Source: SAR202 cluster bacterium AC-647-P02_OGT_505m
GTDB taxonomy: Bacteria > Chloroflexota > Dehalococcoidia > Lucifugimonadales > UBA826
DNA length: 64,000 nucleotides
Direction of reading: 5' to 3'
NCBI GenBank assembly: GCA_009391195.1
Contig: VEXB01000002.1
Location: 20,214 to 84,213 of the forward strand
The notes under the pieces were generated by a model. That model did not search any database. It was given only the letters and a program-made list of their open reading frames with translations, and was not told the DNA's origin. Each line of letters starts with the position of its first letter. Positions within the stretch are counted from its first letter, which is position 1. Shown piece after piece: positions 19,677 through 64,000 of this stretch. Position numbers and translations under genes: made by a program.

Positions 19677-20582
19677 TTGGACGGTCTATATGAGGCCATA
19701 CCATATTTAGTCCTCGGTGTTGGCACAGGGGTTTATGGAATCTTAGTTGGAGCTGGAGGCGGAGTGATTTTAGCGCCTGCTCTGATGATATTTTTTGGAG
19801 TAGAACCTACAGTTGCTGCTGGGACATCCCTCGCTTTGGTGTCAATAAACAGTGTGTCAGGTACTGTCGCCTATAAAAGAAGAGGCCTTGTGGATATAAG
19901 GAGTGGATGGGTATTCGCTTTGTCAGCTGTCCCAGGGTCAATAATTGCTCCTATGGTTTTGGATTCAGCCTCTACAACACTTTTTAAAATATTATTTGGG
20001 TTTCTGTTGCTATTATTGGCTCTCATCATTCTTCTAAGGCCACAATATAGAGAAGATGAATCTGTGTCCGATTCATCTGAGTCTGATCAGGAGTTCGATA
20101 CGATAAATAGAGTTCCATATTGGTTGGATTTCACTCTCACTGATAGAAATATTGTTACAAGAAGAGGGAATACATATAAATATCGTTTCAATGAGTCGCT
20201 TTCCGCTTTTTTTAATCTGTTGCTGGGATTTATTTCCAGCTTTTTTGGGACAGGAGGAGGATTCCTTAGAACACCTATTTTAGTATCCGTTTTTGGATTT
20301 CCTGTTCATGTAGCGGTCGCGACATCTATATTCTCTCTCTCTATTTATGCCACAGTAGGTGCTTTGGTTCATGTCTATCTCGGTCATGTAGATTGGTATC
20401 CTGCACTCGTATGGTCCGGCTTGGGCTTGATCATAGGAGGCCAAATTGGTGCGCGGTTGGTAGAGGTCATTAAGGGAGTTATTATTCTCAGAATACTATT
20501 AGTGGTAGTGATGATAATGGGGATACAGTTGATATTGCAGGGAGCTTGGCCTTCGACGTTTACTTTTACAGGGACGTATTAA
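19677..20582 (+). CDS. TauE/SafE family sulfite/anion exporter
   Basis: 301 aa polytopic protein with two related halves, each carrying GAGGG / GTGGG motifs. Non-ATG start immediately after the aroB stop. Confidence 0.7.
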   Translation: MDGLYEAIPYLVLGVGTGVYGILVGAGGGVILAPALMIFFGVEPTVAAGTSLALVSINSVSGTVAYKRRGLVDIRSGWVFALSAVPGSIIAPMVLDSASTTLFKILFGFLLLLLALIILLRPQYREDESVSDSSESDQEFDTINRVPYWLDFTLTDRNIVTRRGNTYKYRFNESLSAFFNLLLGFISSFFGTGGGFLRTPILVSVFGFPVHVAVATSIFSLSIYATVGALVHVYLGHVDWYPALVWSGLGLIIGGQIGARLVEVIKGVIILRILLVVVMIMGIQLILQGAWPSTFTFTGTY

Positions 20583-21776: not shown

Positions 21777-22055
21777 TCAGAATCCCCCTGCCACAGCTGG
21801 TACGATGCTAACTTCATCTCCAGATGATACCGAGCTGTTCATTCCGTTCAAGAAACGGACATCTTCTCCGTTAATATAGACGTTGACAAAACTCCTTAGT
21901 TCGCCATCATCGTCACATATACGAGCTTTAAGCCCAGGGAACTGTACCTCTAGTGACTTTACAACTTCTGCCATAGTTCCAGCGTCTACAGAGGCTTTAT
22001 CCTCTCCATTGGTAACCTTACGAAGCGGTGTTGGAATCCTGACGATAGCACTCAT
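21777..22055 (-). CDS. MoaD/ThiS/CysO-type ubiquitin-like sulfur carrier protein, C-terminus AVAGG-F
   Basis: 92 aa. FVNVYINGEDVRF...GDEVSIVPAVAGGF matches the CysO/MoaD pattern but has one residue after the Gly-Gly. Confidence 0.8.
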   Translation of the reverse strand: MSAIVRIPTPLRKVTNGEDKASVDAGTMAEVVKSLEVQFPGLKARICDDDGELRSFVNVYINGEDVRFLNGMNSSVSSGDEVSIVPAVAGGF

Positions 22056-22101
22056 TTTATTATCCTCTTTACTAAGATCTACTTATTATTGAGATCTAGA
22101 A

Positions 22102-22344
22102 CTAACCTTCTATTATGTCTCCGCCAACTGGGTCCACGCGTACACCGGTTGAAGCTACCCAGTCCAACCCGTCCTTAATGATTTCGTCGTCACCCTCTAA
22201 TTCTAAGACTACCCAACCCATTGAGTCCCGTACATCCGCTCTTCTTATGTTGGTGACGATTTCAAAATCAATACCTAGTTTGTAAATAACGGGTTCTTTT
22301 ATCAACTCGGAAGGAAATGTAAATCGCACTCTTTTGGTAGACAT
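22102..22344 (-). CDS. NIL domain-containing protein
   Basis: 80 aa. VRFTFPSELIKEPVIYKLGIDFEIVTNIRRADV...GWVVLELEG fits the NIL (MetN C-terminal-like) domain pattern. Confidence 0.7.
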   Translation of the reverse strand: MSTKRVRFTFPSELIKEPVIYKLGIDFEIVTNIRRADVRDSMGWVVLELEGDDEIIKDGLDWVASTGVRVDPVGGDIIEG

Positions 22345-22355
22345 TCGGATATATC

Positions 22356-23588
22356 CTAGGATTTTTGGGCTGCTGCCAAGGCGGTTTGAAACGTCTCGTA
22401 GTCAGGAGTGGTTTGAATAGGTTCTACAAAGTCTCCCATCGCTTCCATAGTTTTCAGACCATTTCCCGTCACATATGCAACGGTAACTTCATCTCTCTTA
22501 ATTTTTCCCTGCTCTACTAGTTTTTTTAGACTGGATATAACTACTCCTCCAGCTGTTTCGGTGAATATACCTTCGGTTTCAGCGAGTAGTTTTATTCCAT
22601 CTATTATAGTATTTTCTTCTGCGTAAACACCTGTTCCATCTGTTTCTTTCAAGACTTCTAGGGAGTATGGTCCCGCTGCAGGATTGCCGATTGCCAGTGA
22701 TTTTGCCAGTGTCTCTGGCCTGACTGGCGTAACATGGTCGCTTCCTGTTTCAAAAGCACCAACAATAGGGGAACAACCTTCTGGTTGAGCAAGGTGCATC
22801 TTTGTTTTGAGGTTTTCTATCAAACCTATGTCGTTAAATTCTTGAAGGCCTTTCCATATTTTTGTGTGAAGCTCTCCAGATGCCCCGGGGACCACGCAAT
22901 GATCCGGAGCCTTCCAACCGAGTTGCTCTGCTACTTCATATCCTAGTGTCTTGCTACCTTCAGCATAAAACGGTCTCATATTGATATTTACGAAAGCCCA
23001 GCGGTGATTATCCGCTAGTTCACTACAAAATCTATTGGCATGATCATAATTGCCTGTGACAGCTACCATAGTCGGACCATAGACTGCCGCCCCTTGGATT
23101 TTTCCCTGTTCCAGGTCAGCAGGATAAAAAACCATGGTTTTCATGCCAGCCTTTGCGCCATGAGCGGCAACGGACCCCATCAAATTACCTGTAGATACGC
23201 ATGCAAGTACTTCAAACTCAAATTCCAGAGCCTTAGTAGTTGTTACGGATACAGGACGATCTTTAAACGAGTAGGTCGGGTTTACACTGTCATTTTTTAT
23301 ATAAAGTTTGTCTAGTCCTAACTGGCTTCCTAGGTTTTTAGCATGAATCAGAGGAGTAAACCCAGTCGATATATCAATGGCTAACTCTCTGTCCACAGGT
23401 AGGAAGTCATGGTATCTCCACATTGTATTTGGACCAGCAGCAATAGATTCTCTACTCACGGCTTTGGAAATAGATTCATAATCGTACTCTACCTCAAGTG
23501 GGCCGAAGCAGAATTCGCAAGCGTTAAGCGGCTCTATAGGGTACTCGCTTCCACATTCACGGCACCTTAGACACTTTACGTGTGGCAA
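22356..23588 (-). CDS. Threonine synthase-like PLP enzyme with an N-terminal zinc ribbon (possible carrier-dependent homocysteine/cysteine synthase)
   Basis: 410 aa. CLRCRECG...CEFC ribbon and the SFKDR PLP-lysine motif. TTG start with AGGAG 7 nt upstream. Confidence 0.8.
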   Translation of the reverse strand: MPHVKCLRCRECGSEYPIEPLNACEFCFGPLEVEYDYESISKAVSRESIAAGPNTMWRYHDFLPVDRELAIDISTGFTPLIHAKNLGSQLGLDKLYIKNDSVNPTYSFKDRPVSVTTTKALEFEFEVLACVSTGNLMGSVAAHGAKAGMKTMVFYPADLEQGKIQGAAVYGPTMVAVTGNYDHANRFCSELADNHRWAFVNINMRPFYAEGSKTLGYEVAEQLGWKAPDHCVVPGASGELHTKIWKGLQEFNDIGLIENLKTKMHLAQPEGCSPIVGAFETGSDHVTPVRPETLAKSLAIGNPAAGPYSLEVLKETDGTGVYAEENTIIDGIKLLAETEGIFTETAGGVVISSLKKLVEQGKIKRDEVTVAYVTGNGLKTMEAMGDFVEPIQTTPDYETFQTALAAAQKS

Positions 23589-23660
23589 CTCATCGCTCCT
23601 ATAACTGAAAAGGGACTCTATTTGAATATCGGGTTGGGAGGCCCTTTAGGTCAGGAAAAA

Positions 23661-23690
23661 ATATTAGCAATCCGTTAGTAAGAGTGTCAA
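23661..23690 (-). promoter_or_regulatory. Candidate sigma-70-type promoter for the thrC-like cluster
   Basis: On the reverse complement: TTGACA, 18-nt spacer, TAATAT. It lies about 70 nt upstream of the TTG start. Confidence 0.4.
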
Positions 23691-23703
23691 GGAATACATT
23701 GTT

Positions 23704-24993
23704 TCACTTAAACCTCCGAGGGTCATGATGAGATTCCGCAGGGCCTACAACGGCAATGTTCATATTTTCTTCAAGGAGATACTCAGAGCTAACATTCATT
23801 ATTTCATCTAAACTTACATCGGTAAGTTTCTTCACATAGTCTTTGGTAGACTGGAACGGGTCTTCATTGAGAGTTTGATTGCAATTCCAGTTTGCTACTG
23901 ACCGCGTATCTTCCCTGTTTAACTTCAGGCGCCCTGTAAATAGTGACTTTACTTTGTCAAGTTCTTCGATATTAGTATTGGTTTTTATTTCTTGTAACTC
24001 TTTAGATATCAGGTGAATAGCCGTTTCATATTTATTTTTGTCTACCGCTGCGTATATATTTATCGCTCCAGTGTCTGTATGGTGACTGACGCCAGCACCT
24101 ATATCGTAGGCTAGTCCTCGTTTTTCCCGAATTTCTTGAAACAATCGACTGCTCATACCTTCTCCAAGTATCGCTATAAGAAGGTCTAGAGCATAGCGAG
24201 ATTTACTGTGCCGGCTTGCTCCTGGGAACCCTATCGATATATGTGACTGCTCCAATGCTCTTTCTTCACTTATGAATCGAGGTTTATTCGCCACATAATT
24301 CACGTCATCAAAAGTATTGGACACGCTACGATTCAGTGATTCCGTCAGAGGTTGCACGAACTCAATTATTTCATTGTGATTCAATTTGCCTGCTACGCTG
24401 ACTACCAGGTTATTAGAGCTGTATTTATTTTGCATGAATTCGACGAGAGATTCATGAGTTAGTTGCGATACTGACTCAATAGTTCCGGCGATATCTCTTC
24501 CCAGAGAGGTTCCAGGCCACATTAGCTCGTCAAGCATTACTTCCGCTCGTGAATTTGGGTAATCGCCAACGCTGTTAATTTCTTCAATAATGACTTGGCG
24601 TTCCAATTCTAGGTCGACAGGTTTGAGGAGAGGTTCTGTGATCAATTGCAAAAGCAGTTGAATACTTTCTTGGGTTTTTTCTGCTAGTGAGCGACACCAA
24701 TATATAGTGGTTTCATAATCGGTTGCGGCGTTAAGAGACCCTCCACTCATTTCTATTATTTCACTTATTTTAGAAGGGTCCGGGACGCTTTCCGTTCCCT
24801 TGAACAACATGTGCTCAATCAGGTGGGCCATTCCTTCTAGTCCAGGAGGTTCATGTCTTGAACCACACCTGACCCCAACATTTATAGCAATTGATTCTAC
24901 GTAAGGAATTTCCTCAGTTATGATGGTCAATCCGTTGGCAAGAGTGTGCGTCTGGACATTTCTTTGAGGCCTGGCTAACCTGGAGTTAGTCAA
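23704..24993 (-). CDS. M16 family (pitrilysin-like) zinc peptidase
   Basis: 429 aa with the HLIEHMLFKGT inverted zinc motif (HxxEH). Confidence 0.85.
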   Translation of the reverse strand: MTNSRLARPQRNVQTHTLANGLTIITEEIPYVESIAINVGVRCGSRHEPPGLEGMAHLIEHMLFKGTESVPDPSKISEIIEMSGGSLNAATDYETTIYWCRSLAEKTQESIQLLLQLITEPLLKPVDLELERQVIIEEINSVGDYPNSRAEVMLDELMWPGTSLGRDIAGTIESVSQLTHESLVEFMQNKYSSNNLVVSVAGKLNHNEIIEFVQPLTESLNRSVSNTFDDVNYVANKPRFISEERALEQSHISIGFPGASRHSKSRYALDLLIAILGEGMSSRLFQEIREKRGLAYDIGAGVSHHTDTGAINIYAAVDKNKYETAIHLISKELQEIKTNTNIEELDKVKSLFTGRLKLNREDTRSVANWNCNQTLNEDPFQSTKDYVKKLTDVSLDEIMNVSSEYLLEENMNIAVVGPAESHHDPRRFK

Positions 24994-34620: not shown

Positions 34621-36867
34621 TTATTCTGCGTCAGCAGATTGTATAGCTCCCGGACTCATCGGTAGAGAAGTCATGCGCTTTCCTGTCGCGTCATATATAG
34701 CATTCGCTAAAGCGGGTGTGGGGGGCACTATGTTCGCCTCTCCAACCCCTCTGACTCCGAATGGATGTCCTGGGTTTGCTACTTCTACTATAACTGTATC
34801 TATCATTGGAAGATCTAGGGATGTTGGCATTCTGTAGTCTAGTAGACTAGAGTTTGTCATCGTTCCCTCGTCGTTCATGAAGTATTCTTCATTCAAGGCC
34901 CAACCAATGCCTTGGACGCTACCACCCTGCATTTGGCCTTCGACGTAACTCGGATGAATTGCTTTGCCTACGTCTTGGACGCATGTGAATCTTTCTACGG
35001 TGGTTTTTCCGGTGTCGGGATCTACTGACACATCAGCGATGTTTCCCGCAAATGATCCGCCCACACCCGATGGGTTCACCGAGGCTGAACCAGAGATTCC
35101 ACCTCCTGTGTCACTTAGTTGCTCTGCCAATTCTTTGAAGGTCATCTTGAGTTCAGAGTCACTCTGGGAACTTATGACGCCGTCTTCCATCTGAAGATTG
35201 TTGGCATCGACATCCCATATTATTGCAGCTCTATCAATACATTGTTTCTTCACATCTTGAGCCGCTTCATATGCTGCCCAACCAGTGGCAAAAGTTGTTC
35301 TGCTGCCCCCAGTTACTGCAGTGAATCCAATGGTATCTGTGTCTACAACAGAAGGTCTAACGTCTTCAACGGGAATTCCCAGAACCTCGGCTGCGTGCAT
35401 CGCGATGGAGGTTCTAGATCCTCCAATATCTGTGGAGCCCTCTGTCAGGTTGACTGAGCCATCTTTGTTAACAGCTATGTTGCATGCTGAGTCGAATCCG
35501 ATGTTGAACCAAAATCCTATGGATATTCCTCTGCCGGTTCCTTCTGCTTTTGCAGACTGGTAATGAGGATGATCGCGCATGGCTTCGAGCACTTCCTTTG
35601 CTCCAATTCTGCCAAACACCGGTCCGTCAGGTCTTCTGGTTCCTTCTGTAGCGACGTTTTTAAGGCGTAGTTCTATTGGATCCATTCCAAGTTTTTCAGC
35701 CAGTTCATTGATAGCTTGTTCTGCTCCAAAAGCCGCGTTGGGTGCTCCAGGGGCTCGGTAGGCCGCTGTTTTGGGCTTATTGACGACCACATCAAAACCG
35801 TCAATTGTGGAGTTTTCAACATCATAGGTGGAGAACACGCATTGAACTGCTGCTCCCACTGGAGATCCAGGGTATGCTCCGGCTTCCATAGCCATCCATG
35901 CATATGCAGCAGTGATCGTACCATCGTGTTTAGCCCCGATCTTGATCTTTATTTGTGATCCTGGAGTCGGACCTGAGGCCTCAAAAGTTTCTTTTCGGCT
36001 CATCACTATTTTCACAGGAGCCCCAGTTTTACGGGAAAGTAGAGCAGCCACTGGTTCCAAATAAATTGGAATCTTTCCACCGAATCCGCCCCCAATCTCC
36101 GTTGGAGTTACTCTTACCATCGAGACGGGCATGTCAAGTAACTCAGCTAGGCTATCCCTAACAACAAATGATCCCTGAGTACTACACCAAACGTGTAGTC
36201 TTCCGTCAGGGCTCCAGAGAGCAGTAGCGTTATGGGGTTCTATGTACCCTTGGTGAACTGTTTTTGTGTTGTATTCCCTTTCAACAACTACGTCAGCTTC
36301 CGCGAATCCTTTTGATATGTCGCCTTTTACATGTTGCGTATGAGAGGCTACGTTACTAACAACCCCTGTATCTTTTCCGAGTTCTTCAGTAGTTAAAGAG
36401 TCGTGTAGTATCGAGGCGTTTGTTGCCATCGCTTCCTGGGTTGTTAACACCGGCGTAAGTACTTCGTATTCTACGTCAATAAGGCCAAGAGCCGATTCTG
36501 CGACGTGAGGATTTGAGGCCGCAACTCCGACGATTGCTTGACCAACGTACAGAGCCTTATCGCTCGCTAGGATATTGTCTTTTAGCCATTGGTTACCGAC
36601 TTCTGGAAAGTCTTTTGAAGTAACAACAGCCTTAACCCCGTCCAGTTTTTCCGCCTTGCTAGTGTCAATTGAAACTATTTTAGCGTGGGCGTGTGGACTT
36701 CTCAAAATTTTTCCGTGAAGTAACCCTGCGGCATCAAAGTCAGCCCCATAAATCGCTCTGCCGGTTACTTTGTCTGCGCCGTCGTGGCGGACTGGTCTTG
36801 TTCCTATTACCTTATAGTCAGTGTCGGTAGCAAGGACCATATTTCTTTCATAGTCGGCCGTTGTCAT
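34621..36867 (-). CDS. Xanthine dehydrogenase / aldehyde oxidase family molybdopterin-binding large subunit
   Basis: 748 aa. GGGFGGK motif, AAYRAPGAP active-site loop region, and a C-terminal GVGE motif. Confidence 0.88.
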   Translation of the reverse strand: MTTADYERNMVLATDTDYKVIGTRPVRHDGADKVTGRAIYGADFDAAGLLHGKILRSPHAHAKIVSIDTSKAEKLDGVKAVVTSKDFPEVGNQWLKDNILASDKALYVGQAIVGVAASNPHVAESALGLIDVEYEVLTPVLTTQEAMATNASILHDSLTTEELGKDTGVVSNVASHTQHVKGDISKGFAEADVVVEREYNTKTVHQGYIEPHNATALWSPDGRLHVWCSTQGSFVVRDSLAELLDMPVSMVRVTPTEIGGGFGGKIPIYLEPVAALLSRKTGAPVKIVMSRKETFEASGPTPGSQIKIKIGAKHDGTITAAYAWMAMEAGAYPGSPVGAAVQCVFSTYDVENSTIDGFDVVVNKPKTAAYRAPGAPNAAFGAEQAINELAEKLGMDPIELRLKNVATEGTRRPDGPVFGRIGAKEVLEAMRDHPHYQSAKAEGTGRGISIGFWFNIGFDSACNIAVNKDGSVNLTEGSTDIGGSRTSIAMHAAEVLGIPVEDVRPSVVDTDTIGFTAVTGGSRTTFATGWAAYEAAQDVKKQCIDRAAIIWDVDANNLQMEDGVISSQSDSELKMTFKELAEQLSDTGGGISGSASVNPSGVGGSFAGNIADVSVDPDTGKTTVERFTCVQDVGKAIHPSYVEGQMQGGSVQGIGWALNEEYFMNDEGTMTNSSLLDYRMPTSLDLPMIDTVIVEVANPGHPFGVRGVGEANIVPPTPALANAIYDATGKRMTSLPMSPGAIQSADAE

Positions 36868-36872
36868 ACTCT

Positions 36873-37352
36873 TTACGCCTCCTGTAGTCGCTTCGCAGCG
36901 TCTTGGACTGCTCTAACAATTTTGTCATAGCCTGTGCATCGGCATAGGTTATTGGCAAGCCAAAACCTTATCTCATGCTCAGTCGGGTTCGGATTCTGTT
37001 CTAGCAGTGCTTTAGATGAAATTATGAAGCCCGGTGTACAGATTCCACACTGCAAGGCCGCATTTTCTAGGAACGCTAGTTGCAGTGGATGGAGATTGCT
37101 CCCGTCCGCGACACCCTCGATTGTCTCAATGTTGGCACCTTCTGCTTCTACACCGAGTACAAGGCAAGAAGTGACTATCCGTCCGTCTATGTTGACGGTG
37201 CAAGCTCCACAGTTCCCATCGTTGCAGCCCTCTTTGGTGCCTGTGAGACCTATCTCGTCCCTAAGGCATTCAAGTAAGCTCTGTCTGGGTTCACACAGGA
37301 AATCAACATGTTCCCCGTTTATCGTTGTTTGTACGTATGTTTTTCCTGGCAT
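36873..37352 (-). CDS. (2Fe-2S)-binding small subunit of the Mo-hydroxylase
   Basis: 159 aa. CNDGNCGACTV and CGICTPG...CRCTGY cluster motifs. Confidence 0.92.
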   Translation of the reverse strand: MPGKTYVQTTINGEHVDFLCEPRQSLLECLRDEIGLTGTKEGCNDGNCGACTVNIDGRIVTSCLVLGVEAEGANIETIEGVADGSNLHPLQLAFLENAALQCGICTPGFIISSKALLEQNPNPTEHEIRFWLANNLCRCTGYDKIVRAVQDAAKRLQEA

Positions 37353-38231
37353 TTAGCTCGCTCCCTGTGCTCTCTCTACTGCTGTGGTGAGGGCACGTCG
37401 TGTAAGAACATCGCAAAGATGTTTTCGGTAGTCTGCAGTGCCTCTCATATCGGATATTGGTTTCGCTGCGGCCTTGGCGAGATCTGCAGCCTTCTGAATT
37501 GCGCCTTCGCTGACTGGCTGTCCAACAAGGGCCTCTCCTGCTTCCTCTACCAAGAGTGGGGTGGGTGCGACTGAGGCCAAGCTTACTCTCGCAGATGTAA
37601 ATTTGCCGTCCTCAATAGTTACGGAGGCACCTACTCCCGCCACCGCAATGTCCATCTCATTTCTCGGAATGAATCTAATGTAATTAGCCCCAAACCCGGC
37701 GCCATTGCTGGGGAAGTTAATAGATATCAGTAGTTCGTCACTCTCAATGGATGTTTGTCCGGGCCCCGTGCATATATCTTCTACAGGGACTTCTCTCGTA
37801 CCAGAAGGACCTGTGATCGTCGCTACTGCTCTATGTGCAATCATATTTGGGATTGAGTCCCCGCTAGGAGCTGCATTACAAAGGTTCCCACCGAATGAGG
37901 CACGCCCCTGAATCTGGGTACCACCTATGAGCGTGGCAGAGTCGTTCAAAGCAGAGAAATGGCTGTTGACATTGTCGTCGCCATAAATCTTGTAGCATTC
38001 CACTGCTGCCCCTACAGTCAACCCTTTGTTGGCATCGTAACTGAGTTCGTTAAGTTCCGGAATGCTCTTTATGTCTACCACCACGTCAGGATTGACCCGA
38101 GGGTGTCCTACTCTTAGCATGACTATCAGGTCTGTACCACCTGCCATAGCTCTAGCGTTTCCACCTGAATCTGAAAGAAGTTTAACGGCATCTTCTACCG
38201 TATTGGGTTTCTCAAAATCTATCCACTTCAA
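37353..38231 (-). CDS. FAD-binding medium subunit of the Mo-hydroxylase (CoxM/XdhB-like)
   Basis: 292 aa. AGGTDL FAD motif and a C-terminal CO-dehydrogenase flavoprotein domain. Abuts the small-subunit gene with no gap. Confidence 0.88.
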   Translation of the reverse strand: MKWIDFEKPNTVEDAVKLLSDSGGNARAMAGGTDLIVMLRVGHPRVNPDVVVDIKSIPELNELSYDANKGLTVGAAVECYKIYGDDNVNSHFSALNDSATLIGGTQIQGRASFGGNLCNAAPSGDSIPNMIAHRAVATITGPSGTREVPVEDICTGPGQTSIESDELLISINFPSNGAGFGANYIRFIPRNEMDIAVAGVGASVTIEDGKFTSARVSLASVAPTPLLVEEAGEALVGQPVSEGAIQKAADLAKAAAKPISDMRGTADYRKHLCDVLTRRALTTAVERAQGAS

Positions 38232-43357: not shown

Positions 43358-43540
43358 TGTCGACTAGGTCCTCTGTTGCTGAACGTAATTCATAGGTTAC
43401 ATTTGGGTCGCTAATGTCCAAAATATGAATTTTAAGTTTGACAGTAATTTATCACTTGATACCCTAGATATGAAGAATGTGCATCTAAAGCAGATATAAA
43501 CAGAGTAGCATGCTGCCTAGGTCAGTTGGGAGTTAACCTT

Positions 43541-44695
43541 ATGAAAGAGGTATTTGAAGACGCTGTAGAAAAGCTTGGAAAAGGTGAGCCTGTAGTTGTT
43601 GCTACTGTTATTAGAACGAAAGGATCGACGCCTCAGAAACCCGGAGCCAAGCTTTTAGTAAGACAGGATGGCTCTGGAACCGGAACGTTGGGCGGAGGCT
43701 GTGTGGAAGGAGATATATGGTTTGCAGCCAAGCAACTTATGCAGAGGGGTGGAGCAGCGGAATATAAGGAATACGAACTCAATGAAGAACTTGCTGCAGA
43801 GGATGGCCTCGTCTGCGGTGGAACTATGTATTTTCTAATTGATCCCGTTTACAGCCCAGGCGATTATCTCCCCTATGCTGAAGAAATCTCAGGAGCTTAT
43901 CAGGGAGAAGGATCTGTTGCTTTAGCCACTGTTATTAAATCGGGTGATGATGGGACTTCAGTGATAGGTGATAAATTATTCATTCGCGAAAATGGTGAAA
44001 CTGAGGGATCTCTGGGAAGTGAAGATTTAGACGTAGCAGCTATTGACAAGGCTTTTGAACTAATGGTGCATGGGCGTAATGAATATGTAACCACGGCTAC
44101 AGGAGCCGAGTACTTTATTGAGGCTTATACAACCCCACCGCAACTTGTAATTTGTGGAGGCGGACATGTGTCAAGAGCCTTAGCTTCCTTGGCCAAACCT
44201 TTGGAATTTCGATTGTTTATAACGGATGATAGAGAAGAATTTGCCAACCAAACTAGATTTCCCGAAGCTGACATTGTTGTTAATGAAAAACCTGAAGAGG
44301 CTTTGCCCACCCTTCCGATTAACCCGAACACATTCATCGTTGTCGCAACCAGGGGCCACAGATATGACAATACAGCTCTTCTTGCCGCAGCCAAAACCCC
44401 TGCCAAGTATGTTGGGTTGATGGGGAGTAAGAGAAAAACAATTTTAATATATGAAGATTTGATGAGAGGTGAACTGACTCTAGAAAGAATTAGGGAAATT
44501 CGTTCACCGATTGGTCTTGATATCAGAGCGAGAACACCTGAAGAGATAGCCATCAGCATAATGTCGGAAATATTGATGTTCCGACTTGGTGGTAGCGGCT
44601 CACCAATGAAATTAGATGACTCTCAACTCGAAAGAATTGAGAAAAAGGTGGCAGGAACACCTAATCAGCCTTCTGGGCAGCCAATAAACCTTTAG
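43541..44695 (+). CDS. XdhC/CoxI family molybdenum-cofactor insertion chaperone
   Basis: N-terminal VATVIRTKGSTPQKPGAK and a Rossmann-like ICGGGHV. ATG at 43541 with GGGAG upstream. Confidence 0.85.
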   Translation: MKEVFEDAVEKLGKGEPVVVATVIRTKGSTPQKPGAKLLVRQDGSGTGTLGGGCVEGDIWFAAKQLMQRGGAAEYKEYELNEELAAEDGLVCGGTMYFLIDPVYSPGDYLPYAEEISGAYQGEGSVALATVIKSGDDGTSVIGDKLFIRENGETEGSLGSEDLDVAAIDKAFELMVHGRNEYVTTATGAEYFIEAYTTPPQLVICGGGHVSRALASLAKPLEFRLFITDDREEFANQTRFPEADIVVNEKPEEALPTLPINPNTFIVVATRGHRYDNTALLAAAKTPAKYVGLMGSKRKTILIYEDLMRGELTLERIREIRSPIGLDIRARTPEEIAISIMSEILMFRLGGSGSPMKLDDSQLERIEKKVAGTPNQPSGQPINL

Positions 44696-44701
44696 TCAAA
44701 A

Positions 44702-45298
44702 GTGTTTCATGCTACAGCTATATTAACCGCTGCTGGATACTCAAGTAGAATGGGTCGCTCGAAGTCCCTTTTACCTTGGAACGGAACTACCCTAATCAAA
44801 CATCAAGTATGTTCACTCCGTCGGGGTGGATGCTGTGAGGTTGTTGTTGTTCTTGGTCATCAGTCGGATGAGCTTAGTAGTGAACTTGACGGGCTGGATG
44901 TCATTCTGGCAGAAAATATTGACTACAAGACGGGGCGGATTTCCTCCATTAAGTGTGGGGTACAGACCGCGTCATCAGAGACTGATTGTTATGTTTTGCT
45001 GGGTGTGGATCAGCCCAGACATTTTTCTATAGTAGCCACTTTAATAAAAAGTCACGTGAGAACAAAATCACTTGTAACGTCTCCAAGATTTGAGGAAAAA
45101 GGCGGGCACCCAGTCATTTTTTCTTCCAAATTGAGGGAGGAGATTCTCGCTCTTGAAGAGGGGGATGGAGGTTTGCGCAAGGTGTTTAATGAATACAGAG
45201 ATGTGGTGAATGAAGTTAAATTCTCGGATCAAGAAATACATCTTGACCTTAATACATTGGAAGAATATGAAACAGCTTTATCTAAATATTCCAGATAA
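44702..45298 (+). CDS. MobA/MocA-like nucleotidyltransferase (molybdenum cofactor cytidylyl/guanylyl transferase)
   Basis: 198 aa. AILTAAGYSSRMGRSKSLLPW N-terminal motif. Lies directly after xdhC. Confidence 0.78.
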   Translation: MFHATAILTAAGYSSRMGRSKSLLPWNGTTLIKHQVCSLRRGGCCEVVVVLGHQSDELSSELDGLDVILAENIDYKTGRISSIKCGVQTASSETDCYVLLGVDQPRHFSIVATLIKSHVRTKSLVTSPRFEEKGGHPVIFSSKLREEILALEEGDGGLRKVFNEYRDVVNEVKFSDQEIHLDLNTLEEYETALSKYSR

Positions 45299-62771: not shown

Positions 62772-63530
62772 TTAGAAGGCTACACCAGTTTCTTTTCCAA
62801 GTCCCAGAAAAGACTTGGCTAGGTCTACGCATTCTATAGCGTCCTTTCCATACCCGTCCGCTCCCATATCATCTGCAAACTCCTGTGAAAGTGGAGCACC
62901 ACCAACCATTACTTTGACCAGGTCTCTCATTTCAACTTCTTCTATCGCCTCTATGGTTCTCCCCATATTTGGCATTGTGGTAGTGAGAAGAGCTGACATC
63001 CCAAGAACGCTAGCCTCGGTTTCTTCTAATGCTTCGATAAATTCATCAGACGATGTATCAACCCCAAGGTCCACGACCGTAAATCCCGCTCCTCTAAGCA
63101 TCATTATGCATAGGTTTTTACCGATATCGTGCAGGTCACCTTTGACAGTTCCCATTATCACAGTCCCCATCGGTTCTACCCCTGAAGCAGAAAGAATAGG
63201 TTCAACGTGTTCCATTCCAGCTTTCATGGCCCTGGCCGCCACAAGTACTTCGGGCACAAAGATTATGTTGTCTCTAAACTTGACTCCCACTATCGCCATA
63301 CCGGCGATCAAACCATCATCCAGAATAGTGTTCGCACTGAATCCTTCGTCTAAGGCCTTCTTCGTCAAGTCGTATACGTCATTGTTATTTCCGTGAATAA
63401 GGTTTACGGAAATTTCTTGCATCAGTGGGTCAGCGTCATTCCAGAGTGATCTAATATGAGATTCCTCTGATGGGTTGGTCACGTATGTTAATTCTTTTTC
63501 AAGATCCTCATTAACAACTGGCATTTGCAT
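62772..63530 (-). CDS. Cobalamin-binding corrinoid protein (MtaC/MttC/MtgC-like)
   Basis: 252 aa. N-terminal helical cap plus a B12-binding domain with GDLHDIGKN (DxHxxG), MSALLTTT (SxL) and MVGGAP (GG). Confidence 0.9.
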   Translation of the reverse strand: MQMPVVNEDLEKELTYVTNPSEESHIRSLWNDADPLMQEISVNLIHGNNNDVYDLTKKALDEGFSANTILDDGLIAGMAIVGVKFRDNIIFVPEVLVAARAMKAGMEHVEPILSASGVEPMGTVIMGTVKGDLHDIGKNLCIMMLRGAGFTVVDLGVDTSSDEFIEALEETEASVLGMSALLTTTMPNMGRTIEAIEEVEMRDLVKVMVGGAPLSQEFADDMGADGYGKDAIECVDLAKSFLGLGKETGVAF

Positions 63531-63636
63531 TCCTTATGAGATTGGTTTCTTAAACAATCCCTTTATTTAATCTGTTGTTATGCTTTGTAAAACAAGATCC
63601 AACGTCTAATTATACGGCTGGTTGGACAGCGCTGGG

Positions 63637-64000
63637 TTATTGGCTGATTCGCTCTCCAGTCCAATCTTTAACGGCAAGGGGAATTTCCATGAGATTTTGT
63701 ATCTTTGTTGCGAGCGGTATAGCGCACTCTGGGGCAATCATTTGAACACCGGCTTCTAGGCATTTGTATACTTCCTGCCTAACTTCTTCAGGACCCCGGG
63801 CGTACAGTGTCTCTGGATTGTTTATATTACCCACCAATCCAATACCTCCGTTGACAGCATCCATGGCCTCTTGCGGGTCGTTTTTTGAATCGAAATGAAA
63901 TGAAGCCATACCAGTCTGTGCAATATAAGGCATTCTGTCCACAGTTCTACCGCATATGTGTAGGATTAAAGGCACTGGTAGTGCTTCCACCATGTCTGTA
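63637..64000 (-). CDS. Uroporphyrinogen-decarboxylase-family methyltransferase (MtaA/MtbA-like methylcorrinoid transferase), C-terminal part only
   Basis: The frame runs past the window edge. LILHICGRT and MIAPECAIP match the zinc-ligand regions of MT2-type methyltransferases. Confidence 0.75.
   Translation of the reverse strand, partial: TDMVEALPVPLILHICGRTVDRMPYIAQTGMASFHFDSKNDPQEAMDAVNGGIGLVGNINNPETLYARGPEEVRQEVYKCLEAGVQMIAPECAIPLATKIQNLMEIPLAVKDWTGERISQ

Follow-up and report, generated by a model that had tools for sequence, protein, structure and literature searches.

Introduction

Does an enzyme annotated as threonine synthase make threonine when its gene shares an operon with that of a ThiS/MoaD-type sulfur carrier, and what does the small NIL domain protein encoded between the two contribute? 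This question is raised by a three-gene operon of SAR202 cluster bacterium AC-647-P02_OGT_505m, which we analyzed within a 64-kb stretch of DNA (hereafter the window; coordinates given without a locus name are window positions). Translation of the open reading frames (ORFs) placed ORFs of 410, 80 and 92 aa in one row on the minus strand, the same co-directional set that had been described in an earlier reading of the DNA made without database searches (the sequence-only reading). That reading had proposed that the enzyme may be mislabeled, and that the operon likely serves carrier-protein-dependent synthesis of a sulfur amino acid.

A route of this kind is known from Streptomyces albulus, where MetM and MetO convert O-phospho-L-homoserine to homocysteine (Hasebe et al., 2024, AEM 90:e01247-24, as summarized in GapMind 2026, doi 10.1101/2024.10.14.618325). 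GapMind 2026 gives the pathway as MetO, Mec, MoeZ and MetM and describes MetM as 'often misannotated' as threonine synthase. From the genes and their neighborhoods, we conclude that the SAR202 operon probably encodes a MetM/MetO-type thiocarboxylate route to homocysteine, not threonine, with the NIL protein as a third component. The enzyme and carrier are most likely members of this recently described kind, and the NIL component, together with fusions of the type ThiS-Gly-Gly-NIL (ThiS-GG-NIL) encoded by relatives, would be the new part.

The enzyme falls outside the verified threonine synthases

The 410-aa protein matched PF00291 (E = 7.9e-66) and carries the S107-F-K109-D-R motif of pyridoxal 5´-phosphate (PLP) enzymes. 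Against the cysKM model TIGR01136 it scored 27 bits, far below the cutoff of 344. Identity was 34-35% to the ThrC proteins of Aquifex, Thermus, Bacillus and M. tuberculosis (2ZSJ, 1UIM, 6CGQ and 2D1F), 49% to one actinobacterial (Micromonosporaceae) protein and 55-58% to carrier-linked homologs from five phyla, including Cyanobacteria, Nitrospirota and Actinomycetota; the Microcystis homolog (L084) was 56% identical. The closest database homologs were named SAR202 or Dehalococcoidia. In a neighbor-joining tree, the four ThrCs with structures in the PDB and the second ThrC-type genes present in three of the loci described below (L031, L063 and L067) stood apart from the carrier-linked clade, which includes the Microcystis protein. 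The second ThrC-type gene of L067, with 508 bits to Aquifex ThrC (2ZSJ), grouped with the verified ThrCs.

The PLP lysine (K61 in Thermus) and the STGN motif are kept in both clades. The alignment also showed 27 positions at which residues invariant in the carrier-linked clade differ from those of canonical ThrC. Thermus T88, S155, N157, R160, N188 and W249 correspond to L136, N203, R205, Y208, S237 and G306 in the window enzyme. L136, N203, Y208 and S237 were each found in at least 98% of 82 carrier-linked sequences, and the Thermus residues T88, S155, R160 and N188 were kept in 7/7 canonical ThrC sequences. We take these last four to be among the positions that bind the substrate phosphate. 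In ThrC, the substrate phosphate directs the addition of water, and a phosphate site remodeled in this way would fit a changed nucleophile and regiochemistry. At the N terminus, C9, C12, C24 and C27 were invariant in one alignment (A2); in another (A1), C9 and C24 were invariant and C27 nearly so. This region gave a weak NinF zinc-ribbon match, and alignments to the PDB ThrCs began only at enzyme residue 53-57.

The tree and the active-site comparison both separated the enzyme from verified ThrCs, while its score against the CysK/M model set it apart from that group. The earlier doubt about the label 'threonine synthase' therefore appears justified: given the 34-35% identity to verified ThrCs, the separate clade, the clade-specific replacements and the carrier linkage described below, the label is likely wrong.

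Among more distant long-form ThrC homologs (35-40% identity; P0311, P0324, P0344, P0361, P0364 and P0386, and P0309, P0314 and P0369), we observed C-terminal PadR-type winged-helix or LeuA allosteric/dimerisation domains, which make these proteins enzyme-regulator fusions. The possibility that NIL is fused to the enzyme in some homologs was rejected, as the long homologs checked bear PadR or LeuA_dimer instead.

The carrier belongs to one orthologous group with a conserved diglycine

The 92-aa protein matched PF02597 (E = 1.5e-14) and the SAMP1 hidden Markov model (HMM) NF041918 (67 bits, cutoff 60). It was 46-69% identical to the carriers encoded after MetM-like genes in other phyla, and only 25-29% identical to the CysO-type carriers of the same operons; the carriers adjoining MetM-like genes thus form one orthologous group. 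The Gly-Gly was kept in all adjoining carriers for which the C terminus was present, which applies to 73 of the 74 compared. These results bear out the description of the protein as a CysO/MoaD-type carrier ending AVAGG-F.

The tail beyond the diglycine varied. In most loci the Gly-Gly is followed directly by the stop codon, in many Chloroflexota and Nitrospirota loci by 1-7 variable residues (R, F, V, SA, LL, CF and others), and in some loci by a whole domain. Even among close relatives the cap differs, being F, R or absent. Because tails of 1-7 residues after Gly-Gly are widespread, the terminal Phe of the window carrier would be an instance of a common removable cap.

One carrier with a downstream domain, in L032 (L032:7388-8350), is a MetO-like protein fused after Gly-Gly to a carboxymuconolactone-decarboxylase/AhpD-like (CMD) domain and not to NIL. 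We also noted a second ThiS/MoaD-like gene in the window itself, encoding an 88-aa protein that ends AISGG-V and shares 38% identity with the MetO-like carrier. CoxS/M/L-like molybdoenzyme genes immediately precede this gene, a hairpin comes after it, and XdhC and MobA-like genes are nearby (Table 1); the protein is probably a MoaD related to the molybdenum cofactor. It would need the same E1 (activating enzyme) and C-terminal trimming as the MetO-like carrier.

Gene neighborhoods of relatives point to homocysteine

A genome scan with an eight-sequence enzyme alignment gave 80 loci with proteins at least 55% identical to the enzyme, from Chloroflexota, Cyanobacteria, Nitrospirota, Aquificaceae, Syntrophaceae, Planctomycetia, Omnitrophota, Actinomycetota and Nitrospinales. 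Carrier and NIL genes were counted by six-frame phmmer/hmmsearch with the window proteins. An adjacent carrier was found in 70/80 loci and NIL in 31/80, with the two distributed as follows: 26/32 and 20/32 in Chloroflexota, 31/34 and 0/34 in the cyanobacterial type, 8/8 and 8/8 in Nitrospirota, and 5/6 and 3/6 in the other groups. The 85%-identical relative L001 has the same flanks as the window. In a 76%-identical relative the flanks are wholly different (glucose-6-phosphate dehydrogenase upstream, a methyltransferase and ftsZ downstream) and PALP-NIL-ThiS is kept. The trio is thus syntenic in relatives, recurring with different flanks and across phyla. Overall, the spread of the module is housekeeping-like, in free-living autotrophs and heterotrophs.

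Genes for ThiF or rhodanese-ThiF and for JAB proteins adjoin the module in Nitrospirota, Syntrophaceae, Nitrospinales and one Dehalococcoidia locus. The Nitrospirota module is flanked by two ThiF genes, one JAB gene and a 309-aa PALP gene; the order in L060 is enzyme, ThiS-NIL, rhodanese-ThiF and JAB, and that in L078 is enzyme, carrier and ThiF. Together with the common GG+X tails, these JAMM and ThiF/rhodanese-ThiF neighbors are as expected from the earlier proposal that the carrier would need removal of its terminal Phe and an E1-like activator.

Control elements in relatives point the same way. Rfam searches detected SAM-I riboswitches (RF00162; SAM, S-adenosylmethionine) of 65-91 bits on the same strand, 75-415 nt upstream of the enzyme gene, in nine loci (L025, L026, L029, L032, L033, L041, L050, L057 and L076), and a motif regular expression run over all loci returned the same nine. 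The riboswitch-bearing orthologs are from other Chloroflexota, with one Actinomycetota locus. The metM gene of S. albulus is likewise reported to have a SAM riboswitch upstream, and Microcystis to be without one (PMC12172450).

Two Nitrospirota loci (L063:118-6029 and L067:5986-11384) contain a string of MetM-like, carrier, NIL and ThrC-type genes followed by a phosphoglycerate-mutase-like (HomK-type) kinase and an aspartokinase. This kinase type is HomK in GapMind 2026 (doi 10.1101/2024.10.14.618325), and judging from gene content, the string is a compact branch-point operon around O-phosphohomoserine. Since the second ThrC-type gene directly follows enzyme, carrier and NIL in these loci, the MetM-like and ThrC types coexist and are not redundant copies. 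A canonical-type ThrC and an aspartokinase are also encoded upstream in the Chloroflexota locus L031.

A further operon type was seen in the contexts of fusion proteins (L087-L092, e.g. L091:332-6552). These contain CysD/N/H-type genes, JAB, CysO, a 309-aa CysM-type gene, a 420-aa MetM-like gene and ThiS-NIL, the sulfate activation and reduction genes including PAPS_reduct and an EF-Tu-like CysN, with an Rrf2 regulator after ThiS-NIL.

Homocysteine synthesis from O-phosphohomoserine is the best supported pathway because the riboswitches, the ThiF/JAB genes, the CysO/CysM genes, the HomK and aspartokinase neighbors and the GapMind pathway combine. With the clade and the synteny added, the proposal of carrier-dependent sulfur amino acid synthesis appears supported by comparative genomics in its homocysteine form.

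Some features of the relatives stand by themselves. In L087 and L088, CysO and CysM are fused (ThiS+PALP, 379 aa). In L031 (L031:7116-7542), the carrier gene is immediately followed by a T-box leader (RF00230, 104 bits). In the Aquificaceae locus L046 (L046:148-1805), the gene after a MetM-like gene that is 58% identical to that of the window codes for an AhpC/TSA-type redoxin, and neither ThiS nor NIL occurs within 6 kb. Aquifex is listed as being without every known homocysteine route (Price et al., 2018), and the L046 gene may be relevant to this gap.

Proposed pathway and comparison with known systems

By analogy with MetM/MetO and CysM/CysO, the terminal Phe would be taken off the MetO-like carrier, and an E1-like enzyme encoded outside the window would adenylate the exposed Gly-Gly, with conversion of the carrier to its thiocarboxylate. 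The MetM-like PLP enzyme would then eliminate phosphate from O-phosphohomoserine, the carrier thiocarboxylate rather than water would add at the gamma carbon, and hydrolysis of the adduct would give homocysteine. The NIL protein might impose post-translational methionine feedback on the enzyme or on the use of the carrier.

The likeness to MetM/MetO is one of gene order (a ThrC-homologous PLP enzyme, then a ThiS/MoaD-type Gly-Gly carrier), of control (an S. albulus-type SAM riboswitch in Chloroflexota and Actinomycetota orthologs) and of helper genes (ThiF/MoeZ-type and JAMM/Mec-type genes beside the module in several phyla), and it extends to the annotation of the enzyme as threonine synthase. 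However, the window has a NIL gene between enzyme and carrier, and NIL is not among the steps in the summaries of the pathway. The window also differs in having no riboswitch, no linked E1 or peptidase and a carrier capped GG-F, insofar as the S. albulus system can be compared through secondary descriptions.

In the CysO/CysM/Mec/MoeZ system of M. tuberculosis, too, a fold-type II PLP enzyme receives sulfide from a carrier thiocarboxylate, and a JAMM hydrolase acts at the carrier C terminus. The differences are that the window enzyme is of the ThrC family and that CysO-type carriers are distant from the window carrier, as scored above; moreover, CysO/CysM and MetM-like genes coexist as separate gene pairs in L087-L092.

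Threonine or cysteine as the alternative product

Several points weigh against the homocysteine reading. The enzyme passed the thrC equivalog TIGR00260 (262.1 bits, cutoff 167.1). The roles given above for ThrC active-site residues are general background on the family, and the enzyme tree was a quick neighbor-joining tree without support values. Kinship to the characterized S. albulus MetM is indirect, resting on published percent identities, shared gene order and the riboswitch; in particular, ThrC of M. aeruginosa PCC7806, encoded beside a metO-like gene, is 51.6% identical to S. albulus MetM (PMC12172450). A Microcystis member of the clade is reported to have both threonine synthase and deaminase activity in vitro, producing threonine from O-phosphohomoserine, and not to have raised methionine in vivo (PMC12172450). 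No Rfam family matched in the 64-kb window, which thus holds no SAM riboswitch: SAM control is a feature of part of the MetM-like family and is absent at the window locus. Finally, as the sequence-only reading had stated, neither ThiF/MoeB nor JAMM was detected in the window, either by phmmer with queries from related loci (E ≤ 1e-3) or by Pfam scans of most of the larger ORFs (leaving out 62,772-63,993 and ORFs that overlap larger genes). An unlinked, shared E1 has a reported precedent in MoeZR of M. tuberculosis (PMC3227635). The relatives L001 and L004 likewise have no E1 or JAMM gene within ±10 kb of the module.

It is therefore worth asking whether the annotation could simply be right, with the enzyme a threonine synthase, perhaps a bifunctional synthase/deaminase, and with NIL and ThiS doing some other job. 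The TIGR00260 score, the retained catalytic Lys and STGN motif, the activities of the Microcystis homolog and the fact that no other ThrC-type homolog is found within the 64-kb window all speak for this explanation, although the closer model NF006050 gave 287 bits, under its cutoff of 303. We nevertheless consider it improbable: linkage to a carrier in 70 of the 80 loci across phyla would have to be accounted for, the nine riboswitch-bearing orthologs have SAM rather than threonine-related control, and a canonical-type ThrC gene shares the string with the module in L063 and L067 and lies close by in L031. The clade, moreover, lies apart from verified ThrCs with canonical positions replaced, and it is the MetM family that GapMind calls commonly misannotated. 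By analogy with the Microcystis protein, the window enzyme may have residual or dual threonine synthase activity. Synthesis of cysteine from O-phosphoserine in the manner of CysM/CysO, or of a sulfur-containing cofactor or natural product, would use the same logic of carrier plus PLP enzyme, and the carrier passes the SAMP1-type HMM too. Yet this reading is very unlikely, and less likely than threonine. The enzyme is far below the CysK/M cutoff, separate CysO and 309-aa CysM-type genes share operons with the MetM-like gene, and the distribution is housekeeping-like. Methionine is indicated by the SAM riboswitches, and O-phosphohomoserine by the neighboring genes for a HomK-type kinase and aspartokinase.

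The NIL protein as a candidate methionine sensor

The 80-aa protein consists of one NIL domain (PF09383; E = 2.3e-13, 50.2 bits, cutoff 24), without a cysteine and without a ferredoxin domain. Its AlphaFold2 model is beta-alpha-beta-beta-alpha-beta (mean predicted local distance difference test score 77.7). Foldseek searches with this model gave 2QRR, 2QSW, 3DHX and 3DHW as top matches (E = 3e-6 to 9e-6, query TM-score 0.77-0.81); these are MetN C2/NIL domains, and the next matches were ACT domains of phosphoglycerate dehydrogenase. Sequence identity to MetN C2 was 17-21%, and a profile search of PDB sequences with NIL returned nothing significant. The most conserved stretch of the protein is T31-N32-I-R34, in which N32 did not vary among 28 close homologs or among nine sequences from three phyla.

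In E. coli, the MetN C2 dimer binds L-methionine, which is hydrogen-bonded by N295, and the N295A mutation abolishes binding (PMC6233128). Because the fold matches MetN C2 and the invariant N32 aligns with the methionine-contacting N295 (in a weak hhalign match, E = 0.014, probability 3%, to a MetN sequence whose residue numbers agree with PMC6233128), we tentatively favor the NIL protein as a methionine-sensing regulatory subunit of the methionine branch, of the MetN-C2/ACT type. We rate this candidate role at slightly under an even chance. With MetN C2 (E. coli MetNI; 3DHW, 3DHX, 3TUI, 3TUZ and 6CVL), the protein has in common the fold, the Pfam family, the aligned Asn and the methionine context. 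Unlike MetN C2, which is the tail of an ABC ATPase, it stands alone at 80 aa or, in the fusions, would be released from a carrier.

Two other systems offer parallels. L-ASST (L-aspartate semialdehyde sulfurtransferase), which consists of the DUF39/COG1900 protein MA1821 and the NIL-ferredoxin MA1822 (PMC5764234), is another non-canonical homocysteine route with a recruited NIL domain, and this domain has been proposed as a methionine feedback sensor (PMC12068725). The substrate and chemistry of L-ASST are different, the scanned window ORFs include no DUF39, and the window NIL has neither the ferredoxin domain nor cysteine. In acetohydroxyacid synthase, a small ACT-type subunit (IlvN/IlvH) is encoded after the catalytic subunit, and IlvN confers feedback by the end product. 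The window NIL is similarly a small beta-alpha-beta-beta-alpha-beta protein encoded right after a catalytic subunit; it belongs to a different Pfam family, and the likeness is known here from the genes and the model.

The sequence-only reading had called the role of a stand-alone NIL protein undefined, and indeed no description of one was found in the literature searched; nor did we find there a paper linking a NIL domain to ThiS or MetO. Database names for NIL relatives are inconsistent, including 'FeS-binding protein' and 'ABC-type methionine transport system ATPase' (P0121, P0156, P0182, P0207 and P0222), and the ThiS-NIL fusions P0438, P0442 and P0482 are named 'molybdopterin synthase sulfur carrier subunit'.

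Linkage of NIL to the enzyme and fusion to the carrier

The 31 enzyme-anchored loci with NIL include both gene orders, enzyme-NIL-carrier in Chloroflexota and enzyme-carrier-NIL in Nitrospirota, as well as fusions. In L060, L071 and L085, carrier and NIL form one ORF composed of ThiS, Gly-Gly, a linker and NIL. At least 120 protein clusters are ThiS-GG-NIL fusions of 172-193 aa, and the best 120 matches to one such fusion were all ThiS+NIL. In operons with both types of carrier, as seen in the contexts of three fusion proteins, NIL is present only on the MetM-side carrier and not on CysO.

A NIL-anchored scan of metagenomes, using a degenerate DNA pattern for VTNIRRADV, gave 120 loci, with a NIL ORF in 119 and enough flanking sequence to judge in 92. 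A MetM-like gene adjoins NIL on the same strand in 87 of these 92, and on the other strand in one more. NIL and the carrier came in both orders, about equally often (35 vs 30). NIL follows the MetM-like gene without a carrier gene nearby in 13 metagenome loci as well as in L028 (L028:6981-7605) and L072 (L072:7118-7510). NIL thus seems to be bound up with the enzyme no less closely than with the carrier. Rare exceptions are L093, L151, L184 and L212, where a ThiS-NIL pair or a lone NIL gene is preceded by more than 1.5 kb of sequence without a MetM-like gene.

In the AlphaFold2 model of a ThiS-NIL fusion, both domains are confidently predicted and the Gly-Gly junction between them is disordered (predicted TM-score 0.49). 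This is in keeping with a precursor that can be cleaved and does not support a fixed interface between carrier and NIL. A precedent is M. tuberculosis MoaX, a MoaD-MoaE fusion cleaved at Gly-Gly (PMC4326299). As in MoaX and ubiquitin fusions, the ThiS-GG-NIL proteins of relatives hold both parts in one chain, and by analogy the carrier would be inactive until the downstream domain is cut. In the window, carrier and NIL are instead separate genes, and the downstream partner would be ligand-binding and not catalytic.

These fusions also allow for NIL sensing methionine and regulating at the level of the sulfur carrier, not of the enzyme or of transcription. A fused NIL would then cap the Gly-Gly, keeping the newly made carrier inactive as a precursor. 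Methionine on NIL would control JAMM cleavage or E1 activation, and a split NIL, as in the window, would act in trans. We regard this version as unlikely; if true, it would mean amino-acid pathway feedback via ubiquitin-like precursor processing.

Regulatory, adaptor and relay roles of NIL compared

Against a methionine-sensing NIL stand the weakness of the N32-N295 match, the lack of fixed interdomain packing in the ThiS-NIL model and the occurrence of functional-looking modules without NIL in Cyanobacteria, one Actinomycetota locus and 12 of the 32 Chloroflexota loci. A further point against it came from the relation to riboswitches: NIL as a substitute for the SAM riboswitch was ruled out, as the two occur together in L029, L032, L033 and L050. 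A regulatory NIL would be a second control layer on top of the riboswitch in such loci.

The main competing idea accepts the pathway and makes NIL a structural adaptor or chaperone that shields or delivers the thiocarboxylate, or marks the carrier for E1 or JAMM as opposed to MoaD, ThiS and CysO. Direct fusion behind the Gly-Gly in so many clusters, the restriction of NIL to the MetM-side carrier where CysO co-occurs and the second MoaD-like carrier of the window, which would compete for E1, are all in keeping with such a role. We think it unlikely nonetheless, as a fusion must be cut for the carrier to function and the modeled junction is disordered with no confident packing. The 13 metagenome loci, together with L028 and L072, in which NIL follows the enzyme with no carrier gene near, are not readily explained by an adaptor, and the most conserved part of NIL is the motif that contacts methionine in MetN. 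The name 'FeS-binding protein' given by NCBI to several members, and the ferredoxin domain joined to NIL in MA1822 of L-ASST, could instead hint at a relay of sulfur through an iron-sulfur cluster or a persulfide. The probability of this is close to nil: the 80-aa protein is cysteine-free, no Cys is conserved across phyla and a ferredoxin domain is lacking, and we dismissed this role.

Consequences for annotation and regulation

The enzyme and its named relatives are called 'threonine synthase' in databases, and the partners 'FeS-binding protein', 'hypothetical' or 'molybdopterin synthase sulfur carrier'. Because databases misname the proteins of the module in this way, metabolic reconstructions of SAR202, Nitrospirota, Omnitrophota and other bacteria with the module would miss the homocysteine route and could wrongly predict methionine auxotrophy. 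Nothing relevant to methionine biosynthesis or auxotrophy in SAR202 was found in the literature searched. Two unrelated homocysteine pathways, L-ASST and MetM/MetO, would each have recruited NIL, and in the latter NIL is also fused behind a ubiquitin-like carrier. The module could thus provide a handle on methionine feedback in carrier-dependent sulfur transfer, and on the way a common E1 is divided among the several carriers of a cell.

Operon organization and promoter

The intergenic gaps are 11 nt between the enzyme and NIL genes and 46 nt between the NIL and carrier genes, so that the carrier gene lies about 290 nt downstream of the enzyme gene in the same operon; a sequence scan found no terminator-like sites on the minus strand within it. 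The features are collected in Table 1.

The promoter proposed in the sequence-only reading, TTGACA and TAATAT with an 18-nt spacer, is present, with an extended -10. In a consensus scan, promoter-like sites were not enriched in the region (6 seen vs 4.7 expected). The -35 hexamer, a TGCTAnnAT element and the TTG start are kept in four relatives (L001, L004, L009 and L010), in which the surrounding sequence and upstream genes differ. We take the promoter as real because it is conserved in these loci despite their differing flanks.

Table 1. Positions of the operon features and of neighboring genes in the 64-kb window.
Feature	Position	Strand	Remarks
Sigma-70-type promoter	23661..23690	-	TTGACA, 18-nt spacer with TG, TAATAT; 10/12 consensus matches
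5´ leader, ~70 nt	23589..23660	-	Without recognizable riboswitch; not conserved among relatives
MetM-like homocysteine synthase candidate, 410 aa	22356..23588	-	TTG start; PF00291, TIGR00260
Cys4 ribbon (C9, C12, C24, C27)	23508..23564	-	N-terminal; short canonical ThrCs are without the ribbon
K109 codon, PLP Schiff-base lysine of SFKDR	23262..23264	-	Aligned with K61 of T. thermophilus ThrC
Stand-alone NIL protein, 80 aa	22102..22344	-	PF09383; AlphaFold2 model and fold search
N32 codon, T-N-I-R motif	22249..22251	-	Aligned with N295 of E. coli MetN (weak match)
MetO-like ThiS/MoaD-type carrier, 92 aa	21777..22055	-	Ends PAVAGG-F; PF02597, SAMP1-type HMM
G90-G91-F92 codons	21780..21788	-	Diglycine and one-residue cap; compared with orthologous carrier tails
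TauE/SafE-family transporter	19677-20582	+	Near the operon
M16 peptidase	23704-24993	-	Directly upstream of the operon
Second ThiS/MoaD-like carrier, 88 aa	34341-34607	-	Ends AISGG-V
CoxS/M/L-like molybdoenzyme genes	34621-38231		
XdhC	43526-44695		
MobA-like	44702-45298		

Surrounding genes in the window

The M16 peptidase and the TauE/SafE-family transporter were considered as parts of the system and rejected, since they are beside the trio only in L001-L003 and not in L004-L006. Searches with phmmer and related-locus queries found no homologs of the HomK-type kinase or aspartokinase in the window, and no other methionine or sulfur-assimilation genes were present among the scanned ORFs. The Pfam scans identified housekeeping and catabolic genes, among them those for pyrimidine synthesis, shikimate kinase, 3-dehydroquinate synthase, TauE, tgt, two M16 peptidases, the CoxSML-like molybdoenzyme with XdhC and MobA, uvrA and short-chain dehydrogenases.

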